A stretch of DNA of 20,192 nucleotides from a virus (Duplodnaviria; Heunggongvirae; Uroviricota; Caudoviricetes): positions 1 to 20,192 of the IMG/VR virus record IMGVR_UViG_2537561937_000013; one strand, given 5' to 3'. Both the position numbers and the translations under genes were made by a program. The notes under the pieces are model-generated. The model was given only the letters and a program-made list of their open reading frames with translations, was not told where the DNA came from and searched no databases. Positions within the stretch are counted from its first letter, which is position 1; each line of letters opens with the position of its first letter. Below, one piece after another: positions 7,496 through 19,097 of the stretch.

Positions 7496-8625
7496 AAATC
7501 ATTGAAGGTGCAACAAAGGCAAATGCTTCGATGGCTAGTAATTATGCTGGGTTGCTGGCAGATAAGCTCGAACAAAAAGGGGAGGTCAAGCAAGCCAGAA
7601 TGATAAGAGAAAGGTTGCTTAGAGCTCCCCAGGCGTTGGCAGGAGCTCAAAGGGCTGGAGGTGGGATATCTCTGGGCTCATTACCGGTAGATATTGATAG
7701 TCGACTCAACACTGTTGATGTCAGTTATCCTAAATTAGACAGTTCAGAGATTTTTCTGCCTGCAGCAATCAGTACCCGTGTTGAAGAGTTTATCACTAAT
7801 GTTCAACGTTATGATGAGTTTGTTAAAGCTGATGCAGCATTGCCGAGTCGTATGCTCGTGTATGGAAAGCCAGGAACAGGTAAGACTATGTTATCTAAGT
7901 ACATCGCTACCCGCTTAGATTTTCCACTTCTTACAGTGCGTTGCGATACTTTGATTAGTAGTTTATTGGGACAAACCAGCAAAAATCTTAGACAGGTTTT
8001 CGATTATGTAATGCAGAGGCCATCAGTGCTTTTTTTAGACGAATTTGATGCTTTAGCTGGAGCAAGAGGTAATGAGAGAGATATAGGTGAGCTTCAGCGA
8101 GTTGTCATTTCACTATTGCAGAATATGGATGCGGCATCAGAGGATACGGTAATTATTGCCTCAACTAACCATGAGCAACTTCTGGATCCTGCAATCTGGA
8201 GGCGATTTAGCTTCAGAATTCCAATGCCTCTGCCTGACATACATCAGAGAGAGTTAATTTGGAAAAATCGTTTAAAGAATATGATATGTAGCGATCTAGA
8301 TTTAAGTGATTTATCAAGAAAATCGGAGGGATTATCCGGAGCAATAATTGAACAGGTGAGCTTGGATGCACGTAGGGATGCAGTTATTGAAGGTGCAAGT
8401 GTGATAAATCACCATAAATTGTATAGGCGTTTGTATCTTGCGCAATCGCTTATGGAAGGTGTAAATTTAAGCACTTACGAAGATGAAATTCGTTGGTTAC
8501 GTTCTAAAGATAAAAAATTATTTTCTATCAGAGTTCTTGCTAATTTGTACAAACTTACATCAAGAGTAATTTCAAACATTCTGAAGGAGTCAGGAGCATA
8601 TGAGCAGAAGGGGTACACAGTTTAG
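7471..8625 (+). CDS. AAA+ ATPase (classic AAA clade), upstream partner of the S8 protease; IetA-like architecture
   Basis: 384 aa. GGGAG RBS. Walker A GKPGTGKT (K138, nt 7864-7887), Walker B LFLDEFD, sensor-1-like IIASTN, Arg-finger-like AIWRRF. AT-rich codon usage distinct from flanking phage genes. Confidence 0.9.
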   Translation: MDYLSEVLKIIEGATKANASMASNYAGLLADKLEQKGEVKQARMIRERLLRAPQALAGAQRAGGGISLGSLPVDIDSRLNTVDVSYPKLDSSEIFLPAAISTRVEEFITNVQRYDEFVKADAALPSRMLVYGKPGTGKTMLSKYIATRLDFPLLTVRCDTLISSLLGQTSKNLRQVFDYVMQRPSVLFLDEFDALAGARGNERDIGELQRVVISLLQNMDAASEDTVIIASTNHEQLLDPAIWRRFSFRIPMPLPDIHQRELIWKNRLKNMICSDLDLSDLSRKSEGLSGAIIEQVSLDARRDAVIEGASVINHHKLYRRLYLAQSLMEGVNLSTYEDEIRWLRSKDKKLFSIRVLANLYKLTSRVISNILKESGAYEQKGYTV

Positions 8626-10864
8626 TAACGCAAAAGTTACAAACCCAATGTTAAGAATCCCTTTTTCCAGTAGTGACTTGGGTGCAATAGTAAACGCTGG
8701 CGGTGGGGCAAAGGTATTGGTTGATGTAACAGCCGAATATAGACAAGGGCTAGTAAGAAATTTAACAACCAGTAAACATTATTTAGAATCCAAACTTTCA
8801 GAGTACCCTGGAAGCTTGGGTACTTTGGTTTTCAAATTAAGAGACCAGGGAATAGCCAAAACGCATAGGCCGAACAAAATTGCTCAAGAGGCTGGATTGC
8901 AAAATGCCGGTCATGCCAAAATAGATGAAATGTTGGTTGCTGCTCATGCCGGCTGTTTTGACGTATTAGAGTCAGTCATTTTACATCGGAATATTAAAGC
9001 GATTTTGGCTAATCTAAGCGCGATTGAGCGCATTGAACCTTGGGATGAGAATAGGAAGGTTCCAGGAGGCACTGATGGTTTGTTTGAATCATCAAACATC
9101 CTTGTACGACTATTTGAGTACACAGGTGAAGATGCAACTTACAACAACTATGAAAACGTTATTTCTATATTAGAACAACACGGAGTTAAATATGATGAGA
9201 TTAGACCAAAATGTGGTCTTCCCTTATTAAGGATAATGGATTTATCCCCAAATGATAGATATATATTAGACATTCTCATTGATTACCCGGGTATAAGAAC
9301 GTTAATTCCAGAACCAAAATATTCAGCATTCCCGGTTAGTGTAAGTGATTCTGTTGGCATTGAAACAAATAGCTTTCCCGTACCATCAGAAGAATTACCC
9401 ATTGTTGCTGTATTTGACACTGGGGTAAGCCCCATCGCGGCAACAATTACTCCTTGGGTAGTGAGTAGGGAAACATACGTAATTCCTCCTGATACGAGTT
9501 ATGAACATGGGACTATGGTGTCTTCATTGATATCAGGCGCTCATTTTTTAAATGACAATCATCCATGGATTCCTGATACAAAATCTAAAATCCATGATGT
9601 TTGTGCTTTAGATGAAAATGGATCTTATATATCAGATTTAATTCTGAGGCTAGCAGATGCTGTAAATAAAAGACCAGATATAAAAGTCTGGAATTTGTCT
9701 TTGGGAGGCGGACCATGTAATGAGCAGATGTTTAGTGATTTTGCGATGGAGTTAGATCGGCTCAGCGATAAATTTGGTATTTTGTTTGTAGTTGCTGCAG
9801 GTAATTATGTAGATGAACCTATACGTACATGGCCAAATCCTGATCCGCTTGGAGGTGCTGATTTAATTTCCTCTCCTGGAGAGTCAGTCCGAGCACTAAC
9901 AGTTGGTTCAGTTTCTCATATGGAAGCTAATGATGCTTTAAGTGAAATTGGAACACCGACACCATATACTCGTCGTGGCCCTGGGCCTGTATTTACTCCA
10001 AAGCCAGATATAATCCATGCTGGCGGTGGGGTTCATAGACCTTGGAATGTAGGAGCAAGCAGTTTAAAGGTCGTAGGGCCAGATAATAGGCTTTGCTCTA
10101 ATTTTGGTACTAGTTTTGCTGCTCCAATTGTGGCAAGTTTAGCTGCGCATACATGGCAGAGAATAGCCACTAATTCAGACTTTAATGTTTCACCATCATT
10201 GATTAAAGCATTATTAATTCATTCCGCTCAATTATCTTCTCCTGATTACTCGCCAAGTGAAAGACGCTATTTGGGAGCGGGAATTCCTAATGAGGTTATT
10301 GAGACCTTATATGATAGTGATGATAGGTTTACTCTGATTTTCCAAACATTCTTGGTTCCTGGGGTGAGGTGGAGAAAGGAAAACTATCCCATACCATCGG
10401 CACTTATTCAAAATGGAAAATTTAAAGGTGAGATTGTAATTACTGCTGCATATGCACCACCACTGAACTCTAATGCCGGCAGTGAATATGTTCGCGCGAA
10501 CGTAGAGCTAAGTTTTGGCTTAATTGAGAATAATACTATAAAAGGAAAAGTACCTATGGAAGGAGAAAACGGTCAATCTGGATATGAGAGAGCTCAAATT
10601 GAGCATGGTGGAAAGTGGTCACCAGTAAAAATTCATCGCAAGGCATTTAATAAAGGAATTACTTCGGGTAACTGGGCTCTTCAAGCTAAAACAACGTTGA
10701 GAGCGAATGAACCGGCCTTAATGGAGCCTTTACCTGTAACTATTGTAGTAACTTTAAAATCATTAGATGGAAACACACAAGTTTATGCTGATGGCGTAAG
10801 AGCTTTAAATGCTAATAACTGGGCTCACTATCCATTGCCTGCTCGTGTGCCAGTTTCCGTATAA
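8600..10864 (+). CDS. Subtilisin-like serine protease (peptidase S8), cytoplasmic, with extra N- and C-terminal domains; IetS-like architecture
   Basis: 754 aa. AGGAG RBS 5 nt before ATG. Start overlaps the ATPase 3' end by 26 nt. Catalytic motifs in D-H-S order: VFDTGVS (Asp273, nt 9416-9418), HGTMVSS (His303, nt 9506-9508), GTSFAAP (Ser505, nt 10112-10114). No N-terminal signal peptide. Confidence 0.9.
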   Translation: MSRRGTQFSNAKVTNPMLRIPFSSSDLGAIVNAGGGAKVLVDVTAEYRQGLVRNLTTSKHYLESKLSEYPGSLGTLVFKLRDQGIAKTHRPNKIAQEAGLQNAGHAKIDEMLVAAHAGCFDVLESVILHRNIKAILANLSAIERIEPWDENRKVPGGTDGLFESSNILVRLFEYTGEDATYNNYENVISILEQHGVKYDEIRPKCGLPLLRIMDLSPNDRYILDILIDYPGIRTLIPEPKYSAFPVSVSDSVGIETNSFPVPSEELPIVAVFDTGVSPIAATITPWVVSRETYVIPPDTSYEHGTMVSSLISGAHFLNDNHPWIPDTKSKIHDVCALDENGSYISDLILRLADAVNKRPDIKVWNLSLGGGPCNEQMFSDFAMELDRLSDKFGILFVVAAGNYVDEPIRTWPNPDPLGGADLISSPGESVRALTVGSVSHMEANDALSEIGTPTPYTRRGPGPVFTPKPDIIHAGGGVHRPWNVGASSLKVVGPDNRLCSNFGTSFAAPIVASLAAHTWQRIATNSDFNVSPSLIKALLIHSAQLSSPDYSPSERRYLGAGIPNEVIETLYDSDDRFTLIFQTFLVPGVRWRKENYPIPSALIQNGKFKGEIVITAAYAPPLNSNAGSEYVRANVELSFGLIENNTIKGKVPMEGENGQSGYERAQIEHGGKWSPVKIHRKAFNKGITSGNWALQAKTTLRANEPALMEPLPVTIVVTLKSLDGNTQVYADGVRALNANNWAHYPLPARVPVSV

Positions 10865-10877
10865 CAACTATATAAAT

Positions 10878-10908
10878 CAAACCCGCTGTAGCGGGTTTGA
10901 TTTATTTG
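10878..10908 (+). terminator. Rho-independent terminator closing the ATPase-protease operon
   Basis: Stem AAACCCGC / GCGGGTTT with loop TGTA, followed by a T-rich tail (gatttatttg). Begins 14 nt after the protease stop. Confidence 0.6.
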
Positions 10909-11193
10909 TGGGTGTGTTTTATAAAAATACCGCCCATACACAACAAAATACAAAAAGTATTACAGATAAAAAAGGAGCGTAATGTGCAGATTTGTTGTTT
11001 TCCATATTTACTCACCTTAATATGATTAATCCCGATAAGATTGTTATTTCAGCGGTTTTCAAATGAAATATTATGCTAATTTGGCAGATTTGCATAACAT
11101 TAAAATTTAATTTATCTAACCGCTTTTAATAATAAGCGTTGTATTTTTATCCCAGCAATCTGTTGTTTGGTTTTTATTCCATTAAGGTGGGGC

Positions 11194-11221
11194 TTTACAC
11201 TGGAGCCAGTTTATTTATACT
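11194..11221 (+). promoter_or_regulatory. Candidate sigma70 promoter (TTTACA-16 bp-TATACT) at the right edge of the AT-rich cargo
   Basis: -35 TTTACA at 11194-11199 and -10 TATACT at 11216-11221, reading into the downstream nin-like genes. Prediction by eye only. Confidence 0.3.
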
Positions 11222-11272
11222 TCATACGTCAGCCTGAACAACTGGCACCTGCTGCGCCAGCAGAGAAAACAG

Positions 11273-11551
11273 ATGGCGCACGATACCAAATTTTACAATT
11301 CGGATAACTCTGCCGCCCCTGCCAGCAGGCACGGGCGGCGTTCTCATGCATTCAAATCTGACTGGTATCAGCACGACCCCTGCACCGAAGAACAGGCTGA
11401 ATGGCTCATTCAGTGTTACCGCGGGCGCGGATGCGAGGTTAAAAAAGCCCTTAGCCTCGACTACCGTCACTGGATAATCTCCGTCAGGCTCCCTTACTCA
11501 GAACGGCCAGCGCGTCCGTCCCGCACATTCCAGCAACGGATCTGGAGGTAA
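11273..11551 (+). CDS. Hypothetical small protein (92 aa), possibly a gene remnant
   Basis: Track ORF. Weak RBS. Stop abuts the start of the DUF968-like gene. GC-rich like the phage backbone. Confidence 0.3.
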   Translation: MAHDTKFYNSDNSAAPASRHGRRSHAFKSDWYQHDPCTEEQAEWLIQCYRGRGCEVKKALSLDYRHWIISVRLPYSERPARPSRTFQQRIWR

Positions 11552-14384: not shown

Positions 14385-15434
14385 ATGCTTGATACTGTAA
14401 AAATATCCAGTTGTGAGTTAATCAACGCCGACTGCCTGGAATTTATCCGGTCGTTACCCGAAAATTCTGTTGACCTGATAGTCACGGACCCGCCGTACTT
14501 TAAAGTGAAGCCTGAGGGCTGGGATAACCAGTGGAAGGGCGACGATGATTACCTGAAGTGGCTGGACCAGTGTCTGGCGCAGTTCTGGCGGGTGCTGAAA
14601 CCTGTCGGAAGTCTTTACCTGTTCTGTGGTCATCGCCTGGCATCTGATATCGAAATCATGATGCGTGAACGCTTCAGTGTGCTGAACCATATTATCTGGG
14701 CGAAGCCGTCCGGACGCTGGAACGGATGCAACAAGGAAAGCCTGCGGGCGTATTTCCCCGCCACAGAGCGCATTCTGTTCGCGGAACATTATCAGGGGCC
14801 GTATCGTCCGAAAGATGCCGGGTATGCGGCGAAGGGCAGTGCACTGAAACAGCATGTGATGGCCCCGCTGATTTCTTACTTTCGTGATGCGCGCGCGGCC
14901 CTGGGGATAACGGCAAAACAGATTGCAGATGCCACAGGAAAGAAAAACATGGTGTCGCACTGGTTCAGTGCCAGTCAGTGGCAGCTACCGAACGAAAGCG
15001 ATTATCTGAAATTACAGTCGCTGTTTGCCCGGGTGGCAGAAGAGAAACATCAGCGCGGTGAACTGGAAAAGCCCCACCACCAGCTGGTGGATACGTATAC
15101 GTCACTGAACCGGCAGTATGTGGAGCTGCAGAGTGAATATAAGCATCTGCGGCGGTATTTTGGTGTGACGGCGCAGGTGCCGTACACGGATGTGTGGACA
15201 CATAAACCGGTGCAGTTCTATCCCGGGAAACATCCGTGCGAAAAACCGGCAGAAATGCTGCAGCAGATAATCAGCGCAAGCAGTCGTCCGGGTGACCTGG
15301 TTGCAGATTTTTTTATGGGCTCAGGTTCAACGGTAAAAGCTGCACTGGCGCTCGGGCGTCGTGCGATTGGCGTTGAACTGGAGACCGGACGTTTTGAGCA
15401 GACAGTCAGGGAAGTTCAGGATTTAATCGTTTGA
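14385..15434 (+). CDS. Orphan DNA methyltransferase (N6-adenine or N4-cytosine; DPPY catalytic motif before FxGxG motif I)
   Basis: 349 aa. DPPY at nt 14487-14498. C-terminal FFMGSGST (AdoMet motif I). No adjacent restriction endonuclease. Stx-type phages carry a methyltransferase at this position between Q and the tRNAs. Confidence 0.9.
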   Translation: MLDTVKISSCELINADCLEFIRSLPENSVDLIVTDPPYFKVKPEGWDNQWKGDDDYLKWLDQCLAQFWRVLKPVGSLYLFCGHRLASDIEIMMRERFSVLNHIIWAKPSGRWNGCNKESLRAYFPATERILFAEHYQGPYRPKDAGYAAKGSALKQHVMAPLISYFRDARAALGITAKQIADATGKKNMVSHWFSASQWQLPNESDYLKLQSLFARVAEEKHQRGELEKPHHQLVDTYTSLNRQYVELQSEYKHLRRYFGVTAQVPYTDVWTHKPVQFYPGKHPCEKPAEMLQQIISASSRPGDLVADFFMGSGSTVKAALALGRRAIGVELETGRFEQTVREVQDLIV

Positions 15435-15483: not shown

Positions 15484-15559
15484 GGCCCTTTAGCTCAGTG
15501 GTGAGAGCGAGCGACTCATAATCGCCAGGTCGCTGGTTCAAATCCAGCAAGGGCCACCA
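15484..15559 (+). tRNA. tRNA with CAU anticodon (ileZ-like tRNA-Ile2 reading AUA, or tRNA-Met)
   Basis: 76 nt. Acceptor stem GGCCCTT / AAGGGCC, D-arm AGCTCAGTGG, anticodon loop CTCATAA, T-arm GGTTCAAATCC, 3' CCA encoded. Close to E. coli ileX/ileY by eye. Confidence 0.85.
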
Positions 15560-15659: not shown

Positions 15660-15736
15660 GCGTTGTTAGCTCAGCCGGACAGAGCAATTGCCTTCTAAGC
15701 AATCGGTCACTGGTTCGAATCCAGTACAGCGCGCCA
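15660..15736 (+). tRNA. tRNA-Arg (UCU anticodon, argN-like, reads AGA)
   Basis: 77 nt. Acceptor GCGTTGT / ACAGCGC (one G-U pair), anticodon loop CTTCTAA, T-arm GGTTCGAATCC, 3' CCA encoded. Confidence 0.85.
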
Positions 15737-16647: not shown

Positions 16648-16983
16648 TTATGGACTTTGTTGTTTTAGCCCATAAGGACATATTTGCAGAGTGCAACGGT
16701 TATTAAAGCATTCATTCAATACGTTATCTGTATTTGTAGGGCATTCCTGGCTGTTTTTGATTAAATTCCAGAATGTTTTATTGAATGGTACTACGTTGTA
16801 AATGGTTACAGGCAGCACTTTGTTATTGAGCATGATGCCTGTGTGAGTCAGTGTAAATATACTTTCAGGAGGTAAGAAAGCATCCGATTGATACCAGATT
16901 ATTAATTTTATTTTACTCCATATGACTGAAAAAGATATTCCGCATGATGGCTGGATAACTGTATCAATCACAATCCACTTCAT
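16648..16983 (-). CDS. Hypothetical AT-rich moron protein (111 aa), antisense to late transcription
   Basis: Track ORF. ATG at 16981-16983 with AGGA about 9 nt upstream. Cysteine-containing. No family recognised. Confidence 0.4.
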
Positions 16984-17228: not shown

Positions 17229-19097
17229 ATGGTGAAAAGAACCATGGCATTTAAACACTATGATGTTGTCAGGGCGGCGTCGCCGTCAGATCTTGCGGAA
17301 AAGCTGACACATAAACTGAAAGAGGGCTGGCAGCCGTTTGGTAGTCCGGTGGCCATAACCCCTTATACCCTGATGCAGGCGATTGCAGCAGAAGGTGATG
17401 TGGTCGTCAGTGGTGCAACTGAGCCGGAGTGGTACTACGTCATCGTACTGGCCGGGCAGTCCAATGCCATGGCTTACGGTGAAGGGCTTCCGCTTCCGGA
17501 TTCATACGATGCGCCCCATCCGCGCATTAAGCAACTGGCCCGTCGTAACACAGTGACTCCCGGTGGTGAAGTATGCGTATTTAACGACATCATTCCTGCT
17601 GACCATTGTCTGCATGATGTTCAGGATATGAGTACGATTAACCATCCCCGGGCTGACCTGAGCAAAGGGCAGTACGGCTGTGTCGGCCAGGGCTTACATA
17701 TTGCCAAAAAACTGCTTCCGTATATCCCTAATAATGCGGGGATCCTGCTGGTACCATGCTGTCGTGGTGGTTCGGCATTCACCCAGGGCACGGAGGGGAC
17801 ATTCAGCGAGTCCACGGGGGCCAGTCAGGATTCGGCTCGCTGGGGAGTGGGTAAGCCGTTATATCAGGATCTGCTTTTCCGCACGAAGGCAGCATTGCAG
17901 AAAAACCCGAAAAACGTTTTGCTGGCGATATGCTGGATGCAGGGGGAATTCGATATGACGAATGCCAGTTACGCCCAGCAGCCAGCAGCATTTCTTGCAA
18001 TGGTACAGCAGTTCCGTGCTGACCTTGCCGGGCTGGCAGCGCAGTGTCACGGTGGAAGTCCGGCATCAGTCCCCTGGATTTGTGGCGACACGACATACGC
18101 GTGGAAACAAGAACACGGTACGCAATATGAAGTGGTATATGGTGCATATAAAGGTAAAGAATCCCAGCAGATTTATTTTGTTCCCTTTATGACCGATGGT
18201 AGCGGAGTTAATACACCGACAAACAACCCGTCAGAAGATCCTGATATTGCCGGGTCTGGTTATTACGGTTCGGCATCCCGAACGAACAAAAACTGGGTAT
18301 CATCAAATCGCCCGACGCATTTCAGCTCATGGGCGCGTCGTGGCATTATTCCCGATCGTATGGCAACTGCTATTCTGAACGTAGCCGGGCGCACCTCAGC
18401 CTTCATCAGTGGTAAGGCACCGGAAATCAAACCCTCGCCCGGCGGCGACACGCCATCGGGTCCGTCTGCAGATACGTCCGTTCGCACAATCTCCCTGCTG
18501 CCGACAGCCGGAGAGGCTGCTGCGCAGGGCTGGACCATTAAGGACGGCGGAATTCAGTTGTCGGGTGGTGTATTTAAGATCGCCAAGCAGAGCAATAAAG
18601 CCTGGTCCCTGACGCGCCCGGTGGATGACGCAGTCTCCCTGCTGACACGGGGTGGCAGACTGAGCTGTAAGTTTCGACTGTCAGGCGCACTGACCAACAA
18701 TCAGTTCGGTCTGGGAATTTATCTGTATACCGATGTAGCGTTACCTGACGTCGTGGCGATGACCGGGACTGGTAACCCGTTCCTGATGTCGTTCTTCACC
18801 CAGACCACAGACGGCAAACTGAATCTGATGCATCACAAGAAAGCAGGAAACACAAAGTTGGGCGAGTTCGGGAATTACAGTAACGACTGGCAGACGCTGG
18901 AGCTGGTGTTCCCCGCCGGCAGTGCCACGGTTACTCCGAAACTGAATGGAGTGGCTGGCCCGGCATTCCAGGCCATAAAAGACAGTCTGGCAGTGGGACT
19001 AAATGCACTGACGCTGACGGATATTACCAAAAATGCAACGTATGGCGTTGAGATAGAAAGTCTGGTGCTGGAGATAAATGCACCGGCATCATCATAA
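17229..19097 (+). CDS. nanS: Prophage NanS-p-type sialate O-acetylesterase (SGNH/SASA hydrolase with N-terminal phage-specific domain)
   Basis: 622 aa. SGNH block-I-like motif VLAGQSNAMAYGEG. Stx-type and related lambdoid phages carry this gene between the stx locus and the lysis genes. Recognised from recollection of the family. Confidence 0.85.
   Translation: MVKRTMAFKHYDVVRAASPSDLAEKLTHKLKEGWQPFGSPVAITPYTLMQAIAAEGDVVVSGATEPEWYYVIVLAGQSNAMAYGEGLPLPDSYDAPHPRIKQLARRNTVTPGGEVCVFNDIIPADHCLHDVQDMSTINHPRADLSKGQYGCVGQGLHIAKKLLPYIPNNAGILLVPCCRGGSAFTQGTEGTFSESTGASQDSARWGVGKPLYQDLLFRTKAALQKNPKNVLLAICWMQGEFDMTNASYAQQPAAFLAMVQQFRADLAGLAAQCHGGSPASVPWICGDTTYAWKQEHGTQYEVVYGAYKGKESQQIYFVPFMTDGSGVNTPTNNPSEDPDIAGSGYYGSASRTNKNWVSSNRPTHFSSWARRGIIPDRMATAILNVAGRTSAFISGKAPEIKPSPGGDTPSGPSADTSVRTISLLPTAGEAAAQGWTIKDGGIQLSGGVFKIAKQSNKAWSLTRPVDDAVSLLTRGGRLSCKFRLSGALTNNQFGLGIYLYTDVALPDVVAMTGTGNPFLMSFFTQTTDGKLNLMHHKKAGNTKLGEFGNYSNDWQTLELVFPAGSATVTPKLNGVAGPAFQAIKDSLAVGLNALTLTDITKNATYGVEIESLVLEINAPASS

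Follow-up and report, generated by a model that had tools for sequence, protein, structure and literature searches.

Pro-peptide-like modules and a jelly-roll-like domain are predicted to flank the subtilase core of IetS, the protease of the IetAS defence system

Introduction

The stretch of viral DNA considered here (the window, 20,192 nucleotides) carries at 8600-10864 on the plus strand, from an ATG start, an open reading frame for a 754-aa S8 subtilase, and the locus raises the question of what the long regions on either side of the protease core are and what they could do. A sequence-only reading had taken the product for a defence protease paired with the ATPase encoded upstream, had recognised no motif in the large flanks and had proposed them as sensor, autoinhibitory or substrate-recognition modules, the opposite outcome being that they are the ordinary pro-domain and accessory folds of secreted subtilases.

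Protease and ATPase pairs of this kind have been described before. IetAS was first reported as a toxin-antitoxin system of the Agrobacterium plasmid pTiC58 and afterwards as a system acting against phages (Gao et al. 2020, as far as it is cited in PMC13069673). In work on homologues, IetS is toxic, IetA neutralises it, protease activity is needed, and attempts to clone a mutated ietA failed (PMC13069673); the same paper, from 2026, states that the anti-phage "mechanism remains unknown". IetAS leads to abortive infection upon a phage-protein trigger, and one phage protein is enough to trigger its toxicity, as with the YosG-type trigger of a Bacillus IetAS, direct and indirect activation not being distinguishable in that study (10.1101/2022.08.27.505566). 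In Mycoplasma, the same pair (TA132/133) forms a toxin-antitoxin system in which deletion of the ATPase only is lethal (PMC8562856).

Results

The two genes and the signals around them are arranged in the window as follows.

7471-8625, plus strand: ietA (iteA), 384-aa AAA+ ATPase, antitoxin partner (Pfam AAA, E=2.6e-30; PADLOC; NCBIfam; RefSeq iteA)
8584-8589, plus strand: AAGGAG, Shine-Dalgarno-like, 10 nt upstream of the ietS ATG
8600-8625, plus strand: 26 nt shared by ietA (3' end, stop TAG at 8623-8625) and ietS (5' end)
8600-10864, plus strand: ietS (iteS), 754-aa predicted cytoplasmic S8 subtilase, toxin/effector (PADLOC, NCBIfam, RefSeq iteS)
10872-10905, no strand assigned: perfect 15-bp stem-loop followed by a T-rich tract, beginning 8 nt past the ietS stop

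We regard the frame at 8600-10864 as a true and strongly conserved gene rather than a chance ORF, because 315 homologues were found, and those listed, 120 in number, are nearly uniform in size (748-771 aa in all but three) and align over 94-100% of the query. Its product scored 1040.7 bits with the NCBIfam equivalog IteS_antiphage (NF042956; cutoff 900; aa 15-752 covered) and E=4e-300 with the PADLOC model of IetS (PDLC02197; aa 12-753), and the upstream ATPase scored 526.6 bits with IteA_antiphage (NF042959; cutoff 510) and E=8.9e-143 with PADLOC IetA. By these family matches the ORF is IetS (IteS), the subtilase half of the two-gene system IetAS (IteAS), which bears out the defence protease and ATPase pairing of the sequence-only reading, although that reading missed the published name. 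Loci labelled iteA/iteS in RefSeq, in an E. coli lambdoid prophage, are 100% identical at the DNA level, and ietAS lies as low-GC cargo between the replication module and the nin/Q module of such a prophage. The GC content of ietAS is 0.39-0.43 versus about 0.5 in the flanking DNA. The locus is present in 78 of 5426 complete genomes, and the 90% cluster of the IetS protein holds 1093 member sequences. On sequence identity, the window copy is the common E. coli allele, correctly annotated, of a system already known; as the result of a genome scan it is a member of a known system from a well-sampled species and no discovery. Phage-encoded look-alikes of IetS were also considered and rejected, as a BFVD fold search with the full-length model returned just generic S8 proteins and weak matches to jelly-roll capsid proteins.

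The 26-nt overlap noted earlier was confirmed. Residues N15 and P16 lie ahead of Met17, an alternative start, and reach at least 90% conservation across 48 homologues, so the upstream ATG is favoured and with it an overlap of this length. Homologous pairs in Comamonas and Pseudomonas overlap by 29 nt and 41 nt, and the arrangement indicates ordinary translational coupling within an operon; it provides no evidence for the fixed stoichiometry or coupled folding suggested earlier. A consensus scan found no sigma-70-like promoter upstream of ietA, and the stem-loop after ietS is likely the operon terminator.

The motifs of IetA were read from an alignment of 23 homologues.

Within 7471-8625, plus strand: Walker A (G132-T139), Walker B (D190/E191), sensor-1 (N233), followed by R244/R245

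All of these, including the arginine residues, are intact and invariant in the alignment, and conservation extends to the N-terminal helical domain. Within the AAA+ proteins IetA falls into the classical clade, with proteasome-activating nucleotidase, Cdc48 and FtsH as its best matches outside IetA itself. Pore loop 1 (S163-S-L-L-G-Q-T169) is likewise invariant and lacks an aromatic residue; because the LLG of this loop is non-aromatic, a role for IetA as a processive unfoldase is uncertain.

The catalytic features of IetS are the following.

9398-10279, plus strand: S8 catalytic domain, aa 267-560 (Pfam Peptidase_S8 spans aa 268-544)
9416-9418, plus strand: catalytic Asp, D273 (FDTGV)
9506-9508, plus strand: catalytic His, H303 (EHGT)
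9803-9805, plus strand: oxyanion Asn, N402
10112-10114, plus strand: catalytic Ser, S505 (GTSFAAP)

The Asp and Ser had been placed correctly by the sequence-only reading, and all four residues are invariant across 48 homologues. Since Pfam coverage is confined to aa 268-544, about 267 aa on the N-terminal and 195-210 aa on the C-terminal side remain unmatched, and separate Pfam and PDB profile searches with the flanks, which returned nothing consistent, agree with the earlier impression that they hold no recognisable motif. No signal peptide was detected, the peak 19-residue Kyte-Doolittle hydropathy being 1.2 over the first 40 windows. A secreted protease was rejected for want of a hydrophobic signal sequence, and IetS is predicted to be a cytoplasmic subtilase. 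Structure prediction of the full protein, proposed with the original reading, was carried out with AF2 (pLDDT 84.3, pTM 0.87), and the predicted fold resolved modules in the N-region and a beta-sandwich at the C-terminus.

The N-terminal region divides into these parts.

8600-8731, plus strand: N-tail, aa 1-44; homologues conserve the motif NP-x-x-x-[IV]-x-x-x-x-x-D-[LY] at aa 15-27, and the tail also holds a Gly-rich loop
8732-8803, plus strand: long helix, aa 45-68 (AF2 models, pLDDT >90)
8804-9040, plus strand: ferredoxin-like module 1, aa 69-147, predicted fold beta-alpha-beta-beta-alpha-alpha-beta
8849-8872, plus strand: motif A84-[IL]-A-K87-S-H89-R90-P91, within the loop that follows strand 1 of module 1 (family-wide conservation)
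9098-9310, plus strand: ferredoxin-like module 2, aa 167-237, predicted fold beta-alpha-beta-beta-alpha-beta, adjoining the catalytic domain
9311-9397, plus strand: variable linker, aa 238-266, with a PEPxY-like start in close homologues (pLDDT <50 at aa 247-249)

The extreme N-terminus is basic and poorly ordered (pLDDT <50 at aa 1-7). Residues 11-30 of the N-tail form strands in the full-length AF2 model (pLDDT about 81) and are unstructured when the N-region is modelled in isolation (about 50); from this difference we infer that the tail packs on the S8 core or on the C-domain. In module 1, all of 48 homologues share K87, H89, R90 and P91, and among 63 divergent representatives, whose median overall identity is 29%, conservation of the motif A[IL]AKSHRP is still at least 85%. 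Module 1 is conserved like the catalytic core among close homologues and, together with the C-domain, nearly so across divergent IetS. The S8 domain, the C-domain and module 1 are conserved to a similar degree and much more strongly than module 2 and the linker. Module 2 is a candidate I9-like pro-peptide that evolves fast, and the linker, the least conserved part (median identity 0.25), is possibly an autoprocessing region. A specific autoprocessing site at PEPxY (aa 237-241) was rejected, as the motif is not maintained across divergent IetS.

The N-region as such seems to belong to this family. Its profile matched 293 proteins among 1.84 billion representatives, and in the 150 matches listed every full-length protein measures 722-787 aa and starts with the region. 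By this exhaustive profile search, which found only IetS-sized S8 proteins or fragments, the region is limited to IetS-type S8 proteases or their fragments, and the idea of a shuffled module used elsewhere was rejected. A Pfam search at E<=10 with aa 1-262 from 18 homologues gave nothing consistent and no I9 (PF05922), and PDB sequence profiles for aa 1-262 gave nothing consistent either; the lone PDB match (7uek, "OT3") covers 44 residues and was taken as chance. The whole 267-aa unit of two modules, helix and tail is matched as a unit by no PDB subtilase.

Structural comparison suggests a relation of this region to pro-peptides. The IetS model aligned over 302-378 residues with subtilase pro-forms versus 231-255 with compact mature cores such as those of thermitase and proteinase K, and unprocessed pro-subtilisin E and ProN-Tk-SP co-align with it over 65-100 residues more than mature cores do. 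At least one ferredoxin-like module therefore appears to sit like an I9 pro-peptide, a placement judged from aligned lengths and pLDDT alone.

The remaining part of the protein is the C-terminal region.

10280-10861, plus strand: C-terminal region, aa 561-754, with a predicted mainly-beta sandwich at about aa 576-750

Its invariant residues are WRK (591-593), E629-Y-V-R-A633 and K672-W673. With aa 561-754 from 18 homologues, Pfam at E<=10 returned nothing, including PPC (PF04151), and a PDB profile search returned nothing. The predicted beta-sandwich resembles the C-terminal beta-jelly-rolls of Tk-SP and KP-43 and the collagen-binding domain of ColH. Aligned lengths of IetS with the Tk-SP and KP-43 structures were 378, 337 and 363, an indication that the flanking domains co-align.

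Discussion

At the level of the predicted fold, the flanks of IetS appear to be in part of the pro-domain and accessory kind, with I9-type modules on one side and a jelly-roll-like region on the other. They do not appear to be ordinary parts of a secreted subtilase, because there is no signal peptide and no I9 or PPC match, the long N-region is found in IetS only, and conservation is core-like. An autoinhibitory or recognition role, as the sequence-only reading had suggested, remains plausible. We consider it fairly probable that IetS is a self-inhibited cytoplasmic protease toxin held by IetA, a single explanation that covers both its identity and a zymogen-like mechanism. IetS would be made as a covalent zymogen-like protease, whose pro-peptide-like N-region would act as folding chaperone and inhibitor and close off the active site while IetS is in the cytoplasm, possibly with help from the N-tail and the AKSHRP loop, which is invariant. 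A position of either of these, or of module 2, at the active site may be inferred from aligned lengths and pLDDT. The conserved module 1 and the C-domain could offer surfaces for IetA and/or for the choice of substrate. IetA would hold IetS latent in an ATP-dependent manner until a phage-derived cue disturbs this control, and the freed IetS would then cut cellular proteins so that the infected cell stops growing.

The same folds could be ordinary subtilase accessories, in which case the N-region would chaperone folding and then be autoprocessed off, the C-terminal sandwich would stabilise the protein as in Tk-SP, and IetA alone would control the protease. The fold classes agree with the pro-peptide and jelly-roll domains of secreted subtilases, and module 2 and the linker diverge rapidly, like pro-peptides. 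However, this explanation leaves aside that the N-region also contains another module, a helix and a tail, a unit without match in PDB subtilases, and it does not fit with the near core-level conservation of module 1, AKSHRP and the C-domain in a family of about 29% identity, nor with a predicted cytoplasmic protein whose N-region is exclusive to IetS, and we hold it to be rather unlikely. It is more improbable still that IetA is an activator, its AAA+ ring gripping the IetS N-terminus upon a phage cue and unfolding or extracting the inhibitory region to give the active protease. The membership of IetA in the classical unfoldase clade, the basic and poorly ordered extreme N-terminus of IetS and the translational coupling of the two genes would suit such a role, but the genetics point the opposite way (IetA neutralises, the ATPase deletion in Mycoplasma is lethal, mutated ietA is unclonable), and pore loop 1 has no aromatic residue.

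Module 1 and/or the C-domain could also be a direct phage sensor that binds, for example, a YosG-type protein and thereby opens the protease. That a single phage protein triggers IetAS toxicity and that surfaces exclusive to IetS are strongly conserved speak for it. However, sensor surfaces of defence proteins tend to diversify, yet the surfaces in question rank as the most conserved in IetS, and the trigger study left direct and indirect activation undistinguished; we give this explanation little credence. Within the favoured reading of a self-inhibited protease held by IetA, a more elaborate version is conceivable but doubtful: a multiply locked zymogen, in which the AKSHRP loop of module 1, the N-tail and the I9-like module would together plug the active site, and the IetA ring would use module 1 and the C-domain to read or reset this lock. 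AKSHRP suggests itself as a pseudo-substrate because Arg-Pro is a poor scissile bond. If this version were true, IetAS would be an ATP-driven "protease safety catch", undescribed for any defence system.

IetAS is a validated defence and toxin-antitoxin system, and the dissection of the fold provides experimental targets, namely the N-tail (aa 15-27), the AKSHRP loop (aa 86-91), the pro-peptide-like module with the linker (aa 167-266) and the conserved C-terminal beta-sandwich.

Among proteases of known structure, Tk-SP from Thermococcus kodakarensis (3afg, 9ues) is the best PDB match to IetS by both sequence and structure and has the same layout of N-terminal pro-peptide, S8 core and C-terminal beta-jelly-roll, while KP-43 (1wmd) consists of an S8 core and a C-terminal beta-domain. 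In contrast to IetS, these proteins are secreted with a single pro-peptide and without an AAA partner, and at about 20% identity to IetS the sequence detects the core only. I9 pro-peptides and inhibitors (POIA1, 1v5i_B; the PCSK9 pro-domain; pro-subtilisin E, 3whi) are comparable to the N-region in fold, a fold also common to ACT domains and ribosomal protein S6, but in IetS the fold occurs twice, accompanied by a helix and a tail, the region is about 3.5 times as long as a pro-peptide, and a Pfam I9 match is lacking. The intracellular subtilisin proteases (ISPs) are S8 enzymes of the cytoplasm, like IetS, and also conserve a tail at the N-terminus, in their case an inhibitory extension (LIPY/F) with the motif [LVI][IFLV]P[YFH] (PMC6220982). 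Close IetS homologues carry a similar [IV]-P-[FY] with Arg or His in the first position instead, and R19-I-P-F22 of the window protein matches three of the four motif positions. However, the ISP extension is only about 18 aa long and comes without pro-domain modules, and an ISP-like inhibitory tail was downgraded to a weak lead since divergent IetS proteins have lost the motif.

The Mycoplasma pair TA132/133 is a distant relative from another host, likened here by its description, which does not include phage defence; it consists of a 353-aa AAA-ATPase and a 757-aa subtilisin-like protease toxin and shares the architecture, the sizes and the toxin/antitoxin logic of IetAS (PMC8562856). Closest of all is IetAS/IteAS itself, from which no feature sets the window pair apart and with which it agrees in family scores, full-length architecture, gene order, overlap, catalytic triad and location in a mobile element.

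Identity and prophage setting of the gene pair

The protease and ATPase genes belong to the already known IetAS system (also named IteA-IteS), and the RefSeq name is correct. In PADLOC, the protease (IetS) gave a full-length match to IetS (E=4e-300), and the ATPase (IetA) a match to IetA (E=8.9e-143). Both also exceeded the curated cutoffs of NCBIfam equivalogs, IetS with 1040.7 bits vs 900 ('S8 family anti-phage peptidase IteS') and IetA with 526.6 bits vs 510 ('anti-phage ATPase IteA').

Features of the cassette (window positions)
7471-8625, upstream of ietS: ietA ORF, 384-aa AAA ATPase
8600-10864, + strand: ietS ORF, 754 codons
8849-8872: motif A-[IL]-A-K87-S-H89-R90-P91 (IetS aa 84-91), in a loop of module 1 of the protease
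10872-10905: perfect 15-bp palindromic stem-loop (ATAAATCAAACCCGC...GCGGGTTTGATTTAT), beginning 8 nt past the ietS stop

Over window 7000-11300 (4.3 kb), identity to E. coli TW10722, in which the genes carry the RefSeq names iteA and iteS, is 100%. At least 80% of this stretch is present in 78 of 5426 complete E. coli genomes. The neighbourhood is a lambdoid (Rac/Qin-like) prophage: the pair is preceded, in order, by genes for an exonuclease, dicB, repressor-like HTH proteins, YdaT, replication proteins, DUF1627 and DUF977, and followed by DUF968, RusA, a Q-type antiterminator and a DNA methyltransferase, and later by two tRNAs, IraM, an esterase, a holin and a lysozyme. GC content is 0.39-0.43 over window 7000-11000 vs about 0.50-0.54 in the prophage genes on either side, which fits cargo acquired horizontally and placed after the replication module (DUF977) and before the DUF968/RusA/Q module. 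The stem-loop is followed by a T-rich tract, together likely the terminator of the cassette. Prophage neighbours, GC dip and the hairpin after the stop thus indicate that ietAS is a cargo cassette of two genes carried by the prophage.

Downstream of the stem-loop lies ~370 bp of AT-rich non-coding DNA. Further cargo-like genes are the DNA methyltransferase (14385-15434), the anti-adapter IraM (16648-16983, - strand) and a SASA-family carbohydrate esterase (17229-19097); here the window departs from TW10722, and its best match is WP7-S17-ESBL-04 (92% coverage, 98% identity). The two tRNA genes follow those for the antiterminator and the methyltransferase, at 15484-15559 (tRNA-Met (CAT) by ARAGORN, tRNA-Ile in the RefSeq equivalent) and 15660-15736 (tRNA-Arg (TCT)).

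Protease gene and overlap with the ATPase gene

All factual elements of the sequence-only reading were borne out. The subtilase signatures of IetS are D273 (FDTGV), H303 (EHGT), N402 (AAGNY) and S505 (GTSFAAP), and Pfam Peptidase_S8 covers residues 268-544 only, leaving large regions on both sides of the protease core. The last 26 nt of ietA are the first 26 nt of ietS. An AAGGAG lies 10 nt upstream of the ietS ATG, and conserved N15 and P16 precede the alternative start Met17, which argues for the upstream start and hence for a genuine overlap. The overlap is kept in distant homologues, with 29 nt in a Comamonas locus (L002) and 41 nt in a Pseudomonas locus (L005). It is ordinary translational coupling, common to many toxin-antitoxin operons, and not the sign of fixed stoichiometry or coupled folding that it had been taken for. 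The Comamonas pair (L002 1-14250) is cargo of a Tn7-like transposon, adjoining TnsA, Mu-type transposase, TniB and TniQ genes, and the Pseudomonas pair (L005 1-14280) lies in a defence island beside Fic, NERD and AAA_15/AAA_21 genes.

Flanking regions of IetS

The first 270 residues had been described as lacking a recognisable motif, and neither flank matched a Pfam family or PDB sequence, even in profile searches at permissive thresholds. Sequence conservation extends over the whole 750-770-aa architecture: all but 3 of the 120 homologues listed are 748-771 aa, with alignments spanning 94-100% of the query. When aa 1-262 were searched as a profile, 293 of 1.84 billion representative proteins matched. 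Among the 150 listed, full-length matches are all 722-787 aa with the region N-terminal, and shorter ones reaching the core continue into the S8 Asp/His motifs, the remainder being too short to judge; the N-region thus appears exclusive to IetS. Its occurrence at the N-terminus of IetS-sized proteins among these 150 also rules out a shuffled sensor module. Because other PADLOC IetS sub-family models extend across the C-domain, as far as about aa 729-739, and some of them also cover the N-region (from aa 31-49), the flanks are a hallmark of the family.

The AlphaFold2 model of IetS, built from 48 homologues, is confident (pLDDT 84.3, pTM 0.87).

Domain map of IetS in the AlphaFold2 model (residues)
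1-44: N-tail
45-68: long helix
74-147: module 1, ferredoxin-like, beta-alpha-beta-beta-alpha-alpha-beta
148-166: short connector
167-237: module 2, ferredoxin-like, beta-alpha-beta-beta-alpha-beta
238-266: linker, low confidence
267-560: S8 core
about 576-750: mainly-beta domain (C-domain)

Structures keeping the pro-peptide align more residues to this model (unprocessed pro-subtilisin E 315/355, EpiP 325, PCSK9 302) than compact mature cores (thermitase, proteinase K and intracellular proteases, just 231-255). Enzymes with a C-terminal beta-domain likewise align longer (KP-43 363/434, fervidolysin 366, and Tk-SP without its pro-peptide 337/409). Matching structures to modules by aligned length, we predict from the model that the N-region holds pro-peptide-type folds, of which at least one probably sits canonically, and the C-region a jelly-roll-type accessory domain. 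Residues 11-30 form two short strands (pLDDT about 81) ordered only with the remainder of the protein in the model, which suggests that the N-tail packs against the core or against the C-domain.

By median identity to the window protein in 48 close homologues (50-84% identical to it), the S8 core (0.60), C-domain (0.62) and module 1 (0.59) are best conserved, and the N-tail (0.42), module 2 (0.34), helix (0.33) and linker (0.25) less so. The order is kept in 63 divergent family representatives (overall median 29%): S8 0.36, C-domain 0.31, module 1 0.28, others at most 0.20. Close homologues keep A-[IL]-A-K-S-H-R-P without variation, and the motif is at least 85% conserved in the divergent set, where it is the sole strongly conserved N-region element; our guess is a putative pseudo-substrate loop or IetA docking site. 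C-domain residues kept in the divergent set are E629, Y630, R632, N634, K672, W673, P675, K677, W692 and R701.

The ATPase partner

The Walker A, Walker B, sensor-1 and arginine residues of IetA are invariant, and its N-terminal helical domain is highly conserved. Around pore loop 1, 20 residues (aa 155-174, window 7933-7992) are nearly all invariant, including the non-aromatic S-S-L-L-G-Q-T; substrate-threading AAA+ unfoldases typically have an aromatic residue in this loop. The final ~45 residues, which include the stretch 'FSxRxLAxLYxLSxRxIxNxLK' (aa 349-373, window 8515-8589), are helix-turn-helix-like. Sub-threshold Pfam matches (HTH_28, HTH_23, HTH_36, HTH_11, Sigma70_r4 and others) were found in 5 of 8 IetA homologues, and the window IetA gave no Pfam HTH match there, even sub-threshold. 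Through this end the antitoxin could bind DNA or autoregulate its operon.

Proposed mechanism and comparison with known systems

We infer that IetS would be a cytoplasmic zymogen-like toxin, whose pro-peptide-like N-region may assist its own folding and block the active site, with the conserved module 1 and C-domain as interfaces to IetA and/or substrates. IetA would restrain it in an ATP-dependent manner until a phage cue frees the protease, at the cost of the infected cell. Passive accessory domains, as in ordinary secreted subtilases, would agree with the pro-peptide and jelly-roll fold types, but a signal peptide was looked for in IetS and none is present, the N-region is IetS-exclusive, module 1 and the C-domain are conserved nearly as well as the core, and the N-tail becomes ordered in the full-length model. 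The flanks thus seem more than ordinary accessories, and we consider a passive role unlikely. The earlier interpretation is partly supported, within an already known system, and an autoinhibitory or recognition role of the flanks is plausible.

In our literature search no structural or domain-level study of IetAS was found, and the added value here is the domain map of IetS, with a few residues that lend themselves to testing. IetAS was originally reported as a plasmid-stabilising toxin-antitoxin pair (protease toxin IetS, ATPase antitoxin IetA), its anti-phage role being demonstrated later (PMC13069673). The ietAS of E. coli ECOR52 has been assayed in synergy experiments. One IetAS from Bacillus works through abortive infection and is toxic once a single phage protein is expressed, by direct or indirect sensing (10.1101/2022.08.27.505566); for the IetS flanks, a role as direct phage sensors seems to us very improbable. 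Equally little weight is given to IetA as an activator of IetS; in Mycoplasma, an AAA-ATPase/subtilase pair of equal sizes works as a toxin-antitoxin system, and deletion of the ATPase alone is lethal (PMC8562856).
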